From assembly GCA_963767925.1 (NCBI GenBank), contig CAVYGB010000010.1:320001-384000 (forward strand): a stretch of DNA of 64,000 bases, in the 5' to 3' direction. The translations under genes were made by a program, and so were the position numbers. Shown piece after piece: positions 6,434 through 15,387 of the stretch; positions within the stretch are counted from its first letter, which is position 1; each line of letters opens with the position of its first letter. Origin of the DNA: an uncultured delta proteobacterium. GTDB lineage: Bacteria > Myxococcota_A > Polyangia > Fen-1088. The notes under the pieces are model-generated. The model saw only the letters and a list, made by a program, of their open reading frames with translations. It did no database searches and had not been told where the DNA came from.

Positions 6434-6589
6434 ATGGAGAGCAATGTGGCCGTGTTTCCGATGGAGTCCGCCGTTCAGGCCTTCGAGTCCGCGGTGCAGC
6501 CGTTCGAGTCGGCCGTGCAGCCGCTCGAGTCCGCGGTGCAGCCGTTCGAGTCGGCCGTGCAGCCGTTCGAATCGGCGGTGCGCGGATAG
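6434..6589 (+). CDS. Putative RiPP precursor peptide, 51 aa, with six tandem [MFL]ESAV(Q/R)x heptad repeats
   Basis: RBS AAGGAGA at 6421-6427, ATG 6434, TAG 6587-6589. Repeats differ mostly at synonymous positions in this frame. First gene of a YcaO operon. Confidence 0.85.
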   Translation: MESNVAVFPMESAVQAFESAVQPFESAVQPLESAVQPFESAVQPFESAVRG

Positions 6590-6624
6590 GCCCGAAGATC
6601 GTTCGGCGTAAGCGTTGTTGAAAG

Positions 6625-6664
6625 GCGGGAGGAGGTGGCCGGCACCTCGACCACCTCCTCCCGC
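6625..6664 (+). terminator. Perfect 14-bp stem-loop after the precursor gene (mRNA-stabilising or attenuating hairpin)
   Basis: GCGGGAGGAGGTGG (6625-6638) pairs with CCACCTCCTCCCGC (6651-6664); no U-tract. Confidence 0.6.
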
Positions 6665-6683
6665 TCGTGAAGGGAACACGACG

Positions 6684-7484
6684 ATGACCAGCACGGCCCA
6701 GTACTTCGATGCCCGCGCCACACGCTACGACGAGGAGTTCTCCGACGGCAGCGTCTGGAGCATCGCCCATCGGATCGCCTGGCGGCTGGTCCAGCCCCAC
6801 CTGCCGCGCGGGCGGGCCCTCGAGGTCCTCGACGCCGGCTGCGGTACCGGCAAGTGGGGCCGGCCCTTCTCGGCGGAGGGGCAGGCCGTCACCTACAGCG
6901 ATCTGTCCCCGAAGATGGTGGAGCAGGCGCTGGCCCTGGCCCGCGCGGCCAACCCGCGGGCCCCCAGCGAGGGGGCCACCCTCTCGGTCGACGCGCTCGA
7001 TGGGCTGCCCGACGCCCGCTTCGACCTCGCCCTGTGCATGGGCGATCCCCTCTCGTACGCCGCGGACCCACCGCGCGGGATCCGCGAGCTGACCCGGGTC
7101 ACCCGGTCGGGCGGCCTCATCCTGGTCAGCGTCGACAGCCGCCTCGGCTACCTGCGGGTGTTCAAGGAGCGCGACGGCTACGACCTCGATGCCCTGGCCC
7201 GCTTCCTCGAGACCGGAGATCTGCCCCGCTCCTGGGAGGGGTTGCCCCTGCACGCCTTCACCCCGGAGGAGCTACGGCGCGCGTTCGATCGAGCCGGGGC
7301 GGACACCGTCGCGGTCTGGTCGCTCCCCACCGTCTCGGCATACTTCCTCTTCGATCCGGCCTTCCGCGCCCGCCTGACCGATCCCGGCTTCGTCGACCGC
7401 CTGGTCGAGCTGGAGCTGGGGGCCCTGGGGCTGGGAGGCGCGCCGGGCACCCACCATCTGTATGGGGTCTTTCGACGGCGATGA
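6684..7484 (+). CDS. Class I SAM-dependent methyltransferase
   Basis: VLDAGCGTG motif I, SDLSPKM, FDLALCMGDPLSY. Its stop overlaps the next start (ATGA). Confidence 0.88.
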   Translation: MTSTAQYFDARATRYDEEFSDGSVWSIAHRIAWRLVQPHLPRGRALEVLDAGCGTGKWGRPFSAEGQAVTYSDLSPKMVEQALALARAANPRAPSEGATLSVDALDGLPDARFDLALCMGDPLSYAADPPRGIRELTRVTRSGGLILVSVDSRLGYLRVFKERDGYDLDALARFLETGDLPRSWEGLPLHAFTPEELRRAFDRAGADTVAVWSLPTVSAYFLFDPAFRARLTDPGFVDRLVELELGALGLGGAPGTHHLYGVFRRR

Positions 7485-12690: not shown

Positions 12691-12703
12691 GGAGGACCGG
12701 AAG

Positions 12704-14155
12704 ATGCGCACCTGGCATGGGCTCCCCGAGAGCGACGACCGCTTCGTGACCGACTACTTGCGGGTCACCGACGCCTTCTACGAAGGGCGGATGACCGACG
12801 CCGACTGGCGGGCCTGGTACGACCAGCGGCTCGCGGTGGTGCTTCGCCACGTCACCGCCCGTTCGGCCTTCTACCAGCGGCACTTCGCCGGGATCGACGT
12901 CGGCTCGATCGACCTGACCTCGCTGGCCCGCCTCCCCTTCACCACCAAGGACGACCTGCAGGCGGCCCGCTACGACATCCTGAGCGGCAGCATCCGCGAC
13001 GCCCAGTTCTTCTACGCCACCACCGGCACCACCGGGCCCTCCACCCCCTGCCCCCGCGACAAGAAGGACCTGTTCACAACGAACCATCAGATCGCCATGG
13101 GCATGCGGCGGATCCTGGAGGCCCACCTCCCCGGGCAAAAGCCCCTGCTGGCGGTGATGGCCCCCAACGAGCTGCACTCCATCTGCAACACCTTCGCCTC
13201 GGTCGCCTTCGAGCTGGGCATCTGCAAGCTCGATCCTTACCCCGCCTCCCTGGTGATCGGCTTCGAGAAGTGCGTGAAGCTGCTGCAGGAGCTGCAGGTC
13301 GAGATCGTGCTGGGCACGCCCGGGCTGGCCCTCATCCTGGCCCAGATCTGCGAGATGTACGGCCTCGATCCCAGACGCGACCTGGCCCTCAAGCTGTTCT
13401 TCTCCACCGGCGAGATCTGCACCCCCGCCATGGAGCGCAACATCGAGCGCATCTACGGCTGCAAGGTCTACAACTTCATCTACGCCTCGCAGGAGTCGGC
13501 CACCATGGCCCTGGCCTCGCCGGCCAACACCTATTACCCCACCCTGCCGAACTACATCTTCGAGGTCGTCGACCCGGACGGCAGCGCGTCTTACGGGCTC
13601 ACCGGGACCGGCGAGCTGTGCGTGACGATGCTGGTCGACGGGATCAAGCCCCTCATCCGTTACCGCACCGGCGACCTCGTCACAATCCGGGAGGAGGCCG
13701 GGGCGACCGGCCCCTACCGCCACAGCCTGCAGGTGCTCGGCCGGCGCAAGGACACCGTCGCCCTCGGCGGCCGCCCGGTGGCCGCCCGCGAGCTCGAGCA
13801 GCTCATCATGGAGGAGGTGCACTCCTGCCTCGGCTACCAGATCGTGATCGCCAGCGCGGGCGGGGCCGACACCCTGGAGGTCAAGCTGCAGGTCCAGCAC
13901 GGGGCCGACGTCTACAAGGACGAGGTGCGGGCGCGCCTGGCGGCCAAGCTGGCCCAGCGGCTGGGGGTGGCGAGCACCGTCAGCTTCGTCCTGCAGCTCG
14001 ACGACATCGTGAACACGGGCGGCTGGATCAGCTGGAAGGCGGCCCGGGTTGTCGACCGGCGCCAGGACAGCGACAAGCGCACCGCCGAGGCGATGGCCCT
14101 GGAAAAACACATGGCGCGCCACCTGGCCAGCGGCGCCGATCCGCTGGTCCTTTGA
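12704..14155 (+). CDS. Phenylacetate-CoA ligase (PaaK)-like adenylate-forming enzyme
   Basis: LPFTTKDDL, P-loop TTGTTG, YASQE, GELCVT, PLIRYRTGD, VLGR. RBS GAGGAGG. Confidence 0.85.
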   Translation: MRTWHGLPESDDRFVTDYLRVTDAFYEGRMTDADWRAWYDQRLAVVLRHVTARSAFYQRHFAGIDVGSIDLTSLARLPFTTKDDLQAARYDILSGSIRDAQFFYATTGTTGPSTPCPRDKKDLFTTNHQIAMGMRRILEAHLPGQKPLLAVMAPNELHSICNTFASVAFELGICKLDPYPASLVIGFEKCVKLLQELQVEIVLGTPGLALILAQICEMYGLDPRRDLALKLFFSTGEICTPAMERNIERIYGCKVYNFIYASQESATMALASPANTYYPTLPNYIFEVVDPDGSASYGLTGTGELCVTMLVDGIKPLIRYRTGDLVTIREEAGATGPYRHSLQVLGRRKDTVALGGRPVAARELEQLIMEEVHSCLGYQIVIASAGGADTLEVKLQVQHGADVYKDEVRARLAAKLAQRLGVASTVSFVLQLDDIVNTGGWISWKAARVVDRRQDSDKRTAEAMALEKHMARHLASGADPLVL

Positions 14156-14181
14156 GACGACGAAAAACGGGAGGGGAGCAC

Positions 14182-15387
14182 ATGAAGACATTTGCGGTCA
14201 CCGGGGCGACGGGCCTGCTGGGTAGCAACCTCGTTCTGCACATCCTCAAGGAGCACCTCGACGCGCTCGACGGGATCCGGATCTTCGTCATCGGGCGGGG
14301 CGGGTCGCTCGAGGTCCACCAGCGGGTCGCGGCCCAGATCCGCAAGACCGGCTGGCCGGCGCTGATGGCCGCGCGCGACGAGGCGCTGCTCGACCGGGCT
14401 TGCGCGGTGCTGGCCCCCATCGAGCTCGACGTCACCGACGACCGGGCCGCGCTGAGCCCGACCGCCGCCGCCGCCATCGGCCCCGGCGGCGTCGACGAGC
14501 TTTACCACATCGCCGCCCTCACCGACTTTCGCCGCCAGAGCCACGTGGAAGAGCGGCTGCGCCAGACCAACGTGGGGGGGACCCGAAACGTGCTCCGCCT
14601 GGTCGACGCGATCCCGGGCGGGGTCCGGAAGCTGGCCTTCGTGGGCTCGGCCTACGCCTGCGGCAAGACGGTCGGCTCGATCGCCCCCGACTACACGAAC
14701 ATCGAGCAGGAGTTCCGCAACCCCTACGAGCGGAGCAAGCTGGAGTCCGAGGTCCTGGCCCGGCGCTCTTGCCAGGAGCGGTCGATCCCCTGCAAGGTGT
14801 TCCGTCCGTCCACCATCGGCGGTCGCCTGCTGGCCCCCCCGATCGGCCACGTCACCAAGTGCGACGTGTACCTCGGCTGGCTGTATTTCTTCCTCCGCCT
14901 GAAATCGAAGATCCTCAACACCAGCAACTGGGCGGAGATCTGCGCCACCCCGGTCGAGATCCCCATCCGGATCCAGGCCAACCTCGAGGTGGGTCTCAAC
15001 ATCGTGGGCGCCGACGTCGCCGCCGCCGCCATGTACTCGGCCATGCAAGAGGACGACGTCTCCCGCAGCTACCACCTCGTCAGCGAGCGGGACCTCCCGG
15101 TCGGCCCGATGCTCGATCACATGTTGACCGCGGCCGGGGTCACCGGCTGGTCTATCGTCCGCCAGCGCCCCCAGTCCGAGATCAACCGCTTCGAGCGCAT
15201 CTACTACGCCAGCGTGGGCGACATCTACACCCCCTACGTCATCCACGAGCGCAACATGGACTTCGAGCACAGCGCCACGATCCGCGCCTGGAACGGCCAC
15301 GGCCCCCTCGTCTCGGTCGACACCGTCGGCACCTTCGCGAAGCTGGTCCGGTACGCCTTCGACAAGAAGTTCGACATGGCCGACTGA
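14182..15387 (+). CDS. Extended SDR, thioester/acyl-CoA reductase-like (NAD_binding_4 type)
   Basis: VTGATGLLG, HIAALTDF, TNVGGT, NPYERSK (YxxxK), FRPSTIGG. RBS GGAGG. Confidence 0.82.
   Translation: MKTFAVTGATGLLGSNLVLHILKEHLDALDGIRIFVIGRGGSLEVHQRVAAQIRKTGWPALMAARDEALLDRACAVLAPIELDVTDDRAALSPTAAAAIGPGGVDELYHIAALTDFRRQSHVEERLRQTNVGGTRNVLRLVDAIPGGVRKLAFVGSAYACGKTVGSIAPDYTNIEQEFRNPYERSKLESEVLARRSCQERSIPCKVFRPSTIGGRLLAPPIGHVTKCDVYLGWLYFFLRLKSKILNTSNWAEICATPVEIPIRIQANLEVGLNIVGADVAAAAMYSAMQEDDVSRSYHLVSERDLPVGPMLDHMLTAAGVTGWSIVRQRPQSEINRFERIYYASVGDIYTPYVIHERNMDFEHSATIRAWNGHGPLVSVDTVGTFAKLVRYAFDKKFDMAD

Follow-up and report, generated by a model that had tools for sequence, protein, structure and literature searches.

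A candidate operon for a rare family of YcaO-dependent ribosomal peptide products built on a leaderless repeat precursor

The window described here is the whole 64,000-nucleotide stretch of DNA that was analysed (positions 320,001 to 384,000, forward strand, of contig CAVYGB010000010.1, assembly GCA_963767925.1, from an uncultured delta proteobacterium of the class Polyangia), which has an overall GC content of ~72%. Positions 6434-15387 of the window are occupied by what is, judged by coupling, gene content, conservation and family membership, a genuine eight-gene operon for a peptide made on the ribosome and modified after translation (RiPP). A preliminary description had listed at this position eight co-oriented genes encoding a repeat peptide, a methyltransferase, an NfsA-like flavoprotein, an E1-like/YcaO protein, an M20 hydrolase, DapA, a PaaK-like ligase and a reductase-like short-chain dehydrogenase/reductase (SDR). 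All eight genes do lie on the + strand, each in a frame with a third-position GC of 0.93-0.98, and the families named were confirmed by Pfam and NCBIfam models scored against their cut-offs. The features of the locus are as follows.

6434-6589 (+): precursor peptide gene, 51 amino acids, AAGGAGAA; open reading frame (ORF) with a Shine-Dalgarno sequence 6 nt upstream
6464-6581 (+): 21-bp tandem repeat, 5.6 copies, coding for the heptad ESAVQPF (Tandem Repeats Finder, 85% matches, score 159)
6624-6665 (+): hairpin with a perfect 15-bp stem (fold -50.8 kcal/mol)
6684-7484 (+): class I S-adenosylmethionine (SAM)-dependent methyltransferase, 266 amino acids (PF13649, 58 bits)
7481-8335 (+): NfsA/FRP-like flavin mononucleotide (FMN) oxidoreductase of the nitroreductase fold, 284 amino acids (PF00881, 63.8 bits)
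8319-10541 (+): fusion of a putative leader-binding/E1-like domain with YcaO, 740 amino acids, TTG start (PF02624, 206.9 bits; TIGR03604, 242.5 bits)
10538-11806 (+): M20D-type amidohydrolase (N-acyl-amino-acid hydrolase/carboxypeptidase type), 422 amino acids (TIGR01891, 228.6 bits)
11803-12690 (+): extra DapA (4-hydroxy-tetrahydrodipicolinate synthase) paralogue, 295 amino acids (TIGR00674, 269.6 bits)
12704-14155 (+): PaaK-like adenylate-forming ligase, 483 amino acids (AMP-binding_C_2, 26.2 bits against a cut-off of 25)
14182-15387 (+): reductase-type SDR (NAD_binding_4, thioester/acyl-CoA reductase-like), 401 amino acids (PF07993, 87.7 bits)
2148-3011 (+): second DapF (diaminopimelate epimerase) paralogue, 3.4 kb upstream of the operon (PF01678)

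The genes are joined by ATGA start/stop overlaps at 7481, 10538 and 11803, the last two of which make translational coupling continuous across YcaO, M20 and DapA, by a 17-nt overlap between the flavoprotein and YcaO genes (8319-8335), and, downstream of DapA, by gaps of 13 nt to the PaaK-like gene and 26 nt from there to the SDR. These junctions are as the preliminary description had given them; the short gap that it placed after the peptide gene is, however, a 94-nt spacer ending at the methyltransferase start, ATG 6684. That start was preferred because the methyltransferase of a homologous locus (L011, below) aligns from this Met and because the hairpin lies in the spacer; the TTG at 6615 was rejected on the same two grounds. 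The hairpin (z -2.84; 2 of 200 shuffles folded equally well), whose arm sequence occurs once in the whole genome, may serve as an attenuator or as a stabiliser of the messenger RNA. An Rfam search of window positions 1-24000 gave no match and a scan for promoters and terminators found nothing above shuffled sequence. Domains of TfuA, PCAT, transporters and peptidase S8 were detected by Pfam neither in the eight genes, in agreement with the earlier statement that the operon holds no TfuA, PCAT or exporter, nor in 18 neighbouring ORFs between positions 9 and 28565, and no endoprotease is encoded in the cluster by the same test. The operon is ended by a convergent DUF1428 gene at 15400-15885.

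The small ORF at the head of the operon encodes a 51-residue peptide (MESNVAVFPMESAVQAFESAVQPFESAVQPLESAVQPFESAVQPFESAVRG) that contains the ES[A/N]V motif seven times and in which a leader cannot be recognised. Its five full repeat units differ from one another by 16 synonymous versus 8 non-synonymous codon changes in the coding frame, against synonymous:non-synonymous ratios of 2:16 and 0:18 when the same units are read in the shifted frames, and in the ESAV portion of the units every variable site is a third codon position. When all six frames of the 9.34-Mb source genome (G000) were scanned, a run of at least three ESA[VI] motifs within 40 residues was found at this single place; in 162,567 bases of fetched loci there was one further case, in L011, and both triples sit immediately upstream of methyltransferase-flavoprotein-YcaO genes. 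On this evidence the ORF at 6434-6589 appears to be a real translated repeat peptide. It could be argued that the ORF arose by chance on repeated DNA or is a regulatory element, the YcaO protein acting on some other peptide or protein. The lack of a leader would fit that view, as would the lack of a family match, the best hit being a sub-threshold XseB score (22 bits against a cut-off of 94). The strong Shine-Dalgarno sequence, a bias to synonymous variation in this frame alone, the uniqueness of the repeat in the genome and the presence of the same motif, in different DNA, ahead of a homologous operon in another phylum all speak against it, however, and leave it very improbable.

That homologous operon lies on L011, a contig of a metagenome-assembled genome (MAG) from the Actinomycetota and the sole member of the YcaO subfamily that was read in its genomic context. 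A 25-residue ORF (MSAAVLTESAVRPMESAILMESAVL), preceded by an AGGAGG Shine-Dalgarno sequence, carries the ESA[V/I] motif three times, contains no Gln, and is followed, in the same order as in the window, by genes for a methyltransferase, an NfsA-like flavoprotein and a YcaO protein that are 53.9%, 48.0% and 36.2% identical to their counterparts; these core genes adjoin by a GTGA overlap and, at another boundary, with zero nt between them. The amino-acid motif common to the two loci is encoded by different DNA. The peptide-methyltransferase-flavoprotein-YcaO set is thus a core unit conserved between two phyla, and because both the four-gene unit and the motif are conserved across that distance the repeat peptide can be taken as the substrate of the YcaO pathway, a point that is settled as far as sequence allows. 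The proposal of a YcaO RiPP operon with a genuine multi-repeat precursor is upheld; the repeat exceeds chance and the YcaO protein passes the TIGR03604 model. Ser, the sole cyclisable residue in the window peptide, is kept without exception in all units of the two peptides and always preceded by Glu. Around the S|A bond E, S, A and V/I are invariant, and the residues between these blocks vary (QPF, RPM, LM). Prediction of a complex between the YcaO protein and the 51-residue peptide returned a score of 0.00, which is evidence neither way. Gas-vesicle protein genes flank the actinobacterial cluster (L011 294-1601, - strand).

The YcaO protein scores 242.5 bits (cut-off 219.25) over residues 377-737 with TIGR03604, the model of SagD-type azoline-forming YcaOs. 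Two ExxER motifs, AECLER (E392, E395) and LEVLER (E504, E507), which we take to be the conserved acidic ATP/Mg-binding motifs of YcaO enzymes, are invariant in all eight members of its subfamily, as are CxxC, HPSC and a C-terminal HFF[T/S/A]. Against solved structures the subfamily profile matched TruD (8.6e-38), LynD (1.3e-33) and MusD (2.1e-29) best, whereas the single sequence gave only ~75 bits with LynD or TruD; in the alignment of profile A2, positions 188-713 correspond to TruD 205-778 and the CxxC and HPSC motifs pair with the Cys pairs of TruD. Residues 1-330 score 0.92-0.94, by language-model features, to leader-binding clusters of thiazole/oxazole-modified microcins (TOMM). With TIGR03882, the E1-like/RiPP recognition element domain, the L011 protein reached 20.6 bits, under the cut-off of 36.9, and the window protein gave no match.

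Relatives of this protein are few. A word-indexed search of 5.8 billion proteins returned one (P0002, 63% identity), and of the 5,917 YcaO-type proteins that a full HMMER search detected among 1.84 billion cluster representatives, no more than seven (P0002-P0008, 235-1003 bits) match both domains, P0009 and those after it scoring at most 185 bits. Searching the genomes of 40 relatives with the YcaO protein gave generic YcaO matches only (at most 76 bits), and profile A2 found no further member in 400 genomes of the phylum (best 143 bits). Among 100 relatives of the L011 MAG there were two matches, both confined to the YcaO domain, one of them in the unpublished genome G448; metagenome scans with profiles A1 and A2 yielded no confirmed relative; and a genome scan with profile A3 recovered L011 and two unrelated archaeal YcaOs, an earlier genome scan having recovered none. 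These comparisons indicate that the YcaO subfamily is very rare and that it stands closest to the cyanobactin heterocyclases TruD, LynD and MusD.

Of the two enzymes encoded between the precursor and YcaO, the methyltransferase was assigned by a feature search to generic class I methyltransferase clusters only. The best NCBIfam match of the flavoprotein is NfsA (NF008033), at 98.9 bits and thus below the cut-off of 223, and its nearest structures are NfsA (1f5v, 2.9e-19), FRP (1bkj) and NfrA. The SagB-type dehydrogenase model TIGR03605 did not match the flavoprotein of either the window or L011 at E<=10.

The four downstream genes encode enzymes of a different character. The M20 protein exceeds the TIGR01891 cut-off (228.6 against 153.75 bits) and has MHACGHD at residue 129, the HACGH motif of M20D amidohydrolases being presumably the metal site. 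Its nearest structures are YxeP (1ysj, 4.2e-53), the indole-3-acetic acid (IAA)-amino-acid hydrolase ILL2 (1xmb) and an N-acyl-glutamine aminoacylase (6slf), an enzyme type that splits off the acyl or aroyl group of a substituted amino acid. DapA scores 269.6 bits against an equivalog cut-off of 206.15 for TIGR00674, and the motifs GTTGE, PYYN, YNVPxRTG and VKE, which we assume to be those of catalysis and of aspartate-semialdehyde (ASA) binding, are present in the window DapA, in its metagenomic relatives P0279 and P0280 and in the L011 DapA. The source genome has another dapA elsewhere that scores 363.6 bits, compared with about 269.3-269.6 for the cluster copy, and the L011 genome (G041) likewise has another DapA at 295.4 bits compared with 253.7 for the copy beside its cluster. 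The cluster DapA has no orthologue in 24 relatives of the source genome (best identity 52%), and its best named relatives are from Myxococcota. The possibility that it is the housekeeping gene was rejected, given the better-scoring copy and the absence of orthologues among the 24 relatives.

The PaaK-like protein falls far below the cut-off for PaaK itself (TIGR02155, 102.7 against 646.3 bits); with PaaK (2y27, 2.6e-21) and AjiA1 (6wuq) as its nearest structures, it is to be regarded, on sequence similarity, as a merely PaaK-like member of the adenylate-forming superfamily, and a search of 400 genomes of the phylum found nothing at E<=1e-60. Relatives at ~43-44% identity occur on plasmids of Pseudomonas syringae pv. 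actinidiae (L020, 8013-12134) and Streptomyces zaomyceticus (L021, 7300-11543), in conserved sets with anthranilate-synthase I/II-type and flavodoxin-family genes that suggest a benzoxazolinate-type aryl-acid pathway, and one of the PaaK-like matches listed is named after the C-1027 benzoxazolinate pathway. From these plasmid neighbourhoods and the C-1027-named relative it would follow that the PaaK-like family activates (hetero)aromatic acids. The SDR passes PF07993 (87.7 against 20.1 bits) with GATGLLG and YERSK (YxxxK) motifs, scores 52.5 bits with the thioester reductase model TIGR01746, below its cut-off of 213.35, and resembles terminal reductase domains (MxaA 4u7w, 1.5e-5). The source genome also encodes two DapF proteins, one in the window at 2148-3011 (221.5 bits) and one on another contig (239.6 bits), where each of 16 relatives has one. 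The link of the second DapF to the cluster is uncertain; the extra DapF, the extra DapA and the M20 enzyme together hint at a building block related to diaminopimelate (DAP).

Homologues of these genes recur together elsewhere, as the preliminary description would have led one to expect. The core is found in the same order in L011, and within 6 kb of the YcaO gene of that locus there are a TIGR01891 M20, a second DapA, an AMP-binding ligase, a peptidyl carrier protein (PCP) and a thioesterase, with a P450, a class IV aminotransferase, an FMN-dependent enzyme of the 2-hydroxy-acid-oxidase type, a major facilitator superfamily (MFS) pump and an ATP-grasp protein also nearby. Moreover, the top non-self matches of the YcaO protein (P0002, 63%), the PaaK-like protein (P0158, 79%) and DapA (P0279, 75%) are each encoded on a metagenome contig (Joint Genome Institute, JGI) of 41,857 bp.

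We consider it moderately probable that the eight genes serve a single pathway, whose product would belong to a new and rare YcaO-dependent family of ribosomal peptides, and each chemical step that follows is proposed from their content, coupling, conservation and family membership. The substrate would be the leaderless 51-residue peptide of seven x-E-S-A-V units, in which the N-terminal domain of the YcaO protein probably binds one repeat as recognition element while a neighbouring repeat is modified. The YcaO domain would activate the Glu-Ser amide of that neighbour with ATP and form an oxazoline at each ES, no residue of the window peptide other than Ser being able to cyclise, and the flavoprotein would probably oxidise the oxazoline to an oxazole. 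The S|A bond would be the processing site, where a single cut would leave an oxazole carboxylate at the end of one unit and, at the same time, Ala at the start of the following one. The chain would in this way be divided into units of 6-7 residues ending in an oxazole carboxylate; those predicted are AVQPFE-(oxazole) for the window peptide and, for L011, AILME- or AVRPME-(oxazole). Cutting could be carried out by the YcaO protein itself, as by MusD, or together with the M20 aminoacylase. MusD is described, in the accessible part of the report on it, as having ATP-dependent peptidase activity and as removing residues after the azole through an acyl phosphate (PMC10885120), and the accessible part of the thiovarsolin report describes tripeptides obtained from a repeat precursor through host peptidases, no protease being encoded in the cluster (PMC6511847). 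The methyltransferase would cap a carboxylate or an amine. DapA, the PaaK-like ligase and the SDR would form an accessory module travelling with YcaO; this module probably converts a carboxylate to an aldehyde through an adenylate or coenzyme A (CoA) thioester, and probably also provides a DAP-derived unit or joins one on. A PaaK-like enzyme could plausibly act on a heteroaryl carboxylate and the reductase on the thioester or adenylate made from it, and the aldehyde that would result is the type of acceptor used by pyruvate-dependent DapA-fold aldolases. Alternatively, DapA with M20 and DapF may make a DAP-pathway unit that is then joined to the peptide.

In a related arrangement, which we consider doubtful, the peptide would not be the precursor of a peptide antibiotic but a consumable multi-copy scaffold for a small non-proteinogenic building block, either an amino acid with an oxazole or a diacid resembling DAP. 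The Glu or Glu-Ser heterocycle of each repeat would be activated by the PaaK-like ligase and reduced to an aldehyde by the SDR; the DapA paralogue would extend the aldehyde with pyruvate, mirroring the use of aspartate semialdehyde in lysine synthesis; and YcaO-driven backbone cleavage with M20 would release the product, one molecule per repeat, in a logic like that of pearlins or LysW with YcaO as the cutter.

A number of observations weigh against the one-pathway proposal. To our knowledge, M20D enzymes need an N-acyl amino acid with a free carboxylate and do not cut internal bonds. The flavoprotein is NfsA-like, not SagB-type, so that azoline oxidation by it is only putative. The YcaO C-terminus reads APHFFT, aligned with NPTPM in LynD and in keeping with the HFF[T/S/A] of all eight subfamily members, in place of the PxPxP that the accessible text of a recent preprint gives as canonical for azoline-forming YcaOs (bioRxiv 10.1101/2025.07.11.664356). 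It could thus be argued that the YcaO protein leaves no stable azoles and instead makes ATP-dependent backbone cuts at the E-S-A junctions in the manner of MusD, or that it introduces a different group, an amidine for instance, with the NfsA-like enzyme acting reductively and dependent on NAD(P)H. A subfamily with HFF[T/S/A] for PxPxP, the failure to detect a SagB-type dehydrogenase, the place of MusD among the closest solved relatives and a repeat design that needs cutting in a cluster that encodes no endoprotease are all in keeping with this view. It should be emphasized, however, that the protein passes the azoline-forming SagD-family model, that one Ser is strictly kept in each repeat of both precursors, and that MusD cuts after the azole has formed, so that cleavage and cyclisation are compatible; we judge a YcaO protein that makes no stable azoles possible but somewhat unlikely.

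Other points against the one-pathway proposal concern its downstream half. The DapAs of the window and L011 are 34% identical and the M20s 27%, neither pair being orthologous, so that recruitment of DapA and M20, if real, occurred independently in the two loci. In L011 these genes stand on mixed strands amid possible housekeeping genes, the aminotransferase there passing the ilvE cut-off. That P0002, P0158 and P0279 share a contig is deduced solely from the identical length of 41,857 bp, and a second DapA/PaaK-like pair (P0280, 70%; P0159, 68%) lies on a contig of 36,728 bp on which no YcaO was detected. A search for RNA runs containing the stretch found none.

In view of these points the operon could hold two independent modules on one transcript, the RiPP core making an azol(in)e peptide and the M20-DapA-PaaK-like-SDR set, perhaps with DapF, serving a separate small-molecule or amino-acid pathway that branches from the lysine/DAP route and leaves the peptide untouched. 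Consistent with such a division, DapA keeps all its canonical motifs and exceeds its equivalog cut-off, a DapA/PaaK-like pair occurs where YcaO is undetected, the L011 DapA and M20 are not orthologous to those of the window, and the ~43-44% identical PaaK-like relatives belong to clusters for small molecules in which anthranilate-synthase-type genes occur. GC content is also lower in the PaaK-like and SDR genes (12704-15387) than in the preceding operon genes (0.68 against 0.74-0.77); their third-position GC is nevertheless 0.96-0.97, and because it is unchanged the difference reflects amino-acid composition, not codon usage. Against the division, 4-nt overlaps couple YcaO to M20 and M20 to DapA; the M20, DapA and adenylating families recur beside the only other accessible subfamily member, in L011; and homologues of YcaO, DapA and the PaaK-like protein seem, from equal contig size, to co-occur on the 41,857-bp contig. 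By a rough estimate from the number of DapA matches per genome (5 in the 9.34 Mb of G000 and 2 in the 3.8 Mb of G041), the chance of a DapA-family gene within a few kb of a given locus is well under 1% per genome. We consequently regard two separate modules as unlikely, though hardly more so than a YcaO enzyme that forms no stable azoles. What had been proposed as one pathway making a short, possibly capped peptide has comparative support in its link of YcaO to DapA and the ligase, from L011 and the 41,857-bp contigs, whereas the capped short peptide is one of several chemistries that the data allow.

Set beside known systems, the proposed pathway resembles the linear azol(in)e-containing peptides and TOMMs (LAP/TOMM; microcin B17 and plantazolicin type) in a SagD-family YcaO, a putative leader-binding/E1-like partner domain and a nitroreductase-fold FMN enzyme; the SAM methyltransferase presumably resembles that of the plantazolicin pathway. 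It differs from them in having no detectable SagB/McbC-type dehydrogenase (TIGR03605) and no PxPxP, and in its leaderless repeat substrate with one cyclisable residue per unit and its added DapA/M20/PaaK-like/reductase module. Cyanobactin systems (PatD/TruD/LynD, and muscoride with MusD) likewise combine a fused E1-like and YcaO protein with multi-core precursors, and the accessible account of MusD supplies the precedent for YcaO-driven removal of residues past an azole (PMC10885120). No PatA/PatG subtilisin-type protease or other cyanobactin protein was found among the eight genes, however, and the absent leader, the NfsA-like flavoprotein, HFF[T/S/A] in place of a Pro-rich C-terminus and the non-cyanobacterial hosts set the system apart; a cyanobactin identity was rejected since the PatA/G proteases were not found.

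The nearest precedent for a repeat precursor with YcaO is that of the thiovarsolins. The var cluster of Streptomyces varsoviensis, as presented in the accessible part of its report, resembles the present locus in a YcaO precursor with up to five imperfect repeats, in very short repeat-derived peptides made with no cluster protease, as proposed here, and in adjoining non-ribosomal genes (ATP-grasp ligase, amidinotransferase, non-ribosomal peptide synthetase/polyketide synthase) of unclear role (PMC6511847). By the same partial account the thiovarsolin precursors have a predicted leader, where the window peptide has none, and YcaO acts with TfuA to give thioamides, whereas TfuA was not found in the operon or its scanned flanks (PMC6511847). 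In addition, the window YcaO has a putative E1-like domain fused to it and its score is that of a cyclodehydratase, and the accessory genes differ. Tiarins, the trifolitoxin family, are small RiPPs with FMN nitroreductase-fold enzymes and with YcaO and methyltransferases as accessories, for which the accessible text of the preprint gives the pairing of TfxB with TfxC, along with a conserved Gln, as the definition (bioRxiv 10.64898/2025.12.02.691738); the present loci have a single NfsA-type flavoprotein and the L011 precursor is free of Gln, and a tiarin identity was accordingly rejected. The full-text literature searched, which left subscription-only papers and supplements outside its coverage, held no description of this gene combination, and the preliminary judgement that it is unlike the characterised RiPP classes stands to that extent. 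Repeat precursors with YcaO and RiPP/non-ribosomal hybrids already have precedents; the unusual features are a substrate made of repeats with no leader, an atypical pairing of YcaO and flavoprotein, and paralogues that seem to have been recruited from the lysine pathway.

The surroundings of the operon differ in how far they are shared with a genome of the same genus (G001). Positions ~6000-17300 have no DNA match there, save paralogue-level matches to DapA and a few chance-level matches of 30-80 bases. Within this stretch, directly downstream of the operon and convergent to it, the DUF1428 gene is accompanied by a gene of the glyoxalase/bleomycin-resistance family (together 15400-16696, - strand), whose product could be a putative self-protection protein. 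Upstream, a glycogen-branching/isoamylase-type gene (3118-5019, + strand; CBM_48, alpha-amylase and alpha-amylase_C domains) is 83% identical in DNA to G001 over 3124-5011; its high-GC3 frame shifts near 4431-4440 within one open ORF, for which a frameshift or an assembly error is possible. Window positions ~100-720, in a gene of no Pfam family (9-887, - strand), have dozens of matches in G001 at 65-90% identity, often in tandem (contigs C826, C455 and C464), as in a repetitive gene family or element. In a soil metagenome run (X1), at least 5 pieces of 151-191 bases, among 8 pieces listed, match parts of the methyltransferase, DapA and PaaK-like genes with no more than one difference, and 4 of those 5 match without any; 5 of 15 records are at least 99% alike, and the run is perhaps the source sample, hence not independent.

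If the proposal is true, the operon represents a new RiPP family, and it becomes of interest by what means an E1-like/YcaO enzyme recognises a substrate serving as its own leader. It would also define a YcaO subfamily that has lost the PxPxP tail and is partnered with an NfsA-type instead of a SagB-type flavoprotein, and a case of joint recruitment of lysine-pathway paralogues (DapA, the M20 deacylase type and perhaps DapF) and a carboxylate-to-aldehyde pair. With no more than seven full-length members in a set of 1.84 billion cluster representatives, the family is so rare that class-based genome mining would miss it, and the pathway could give new small oxazole-type metabolites or a new means of enzymatic, site-specific peptide cutting.

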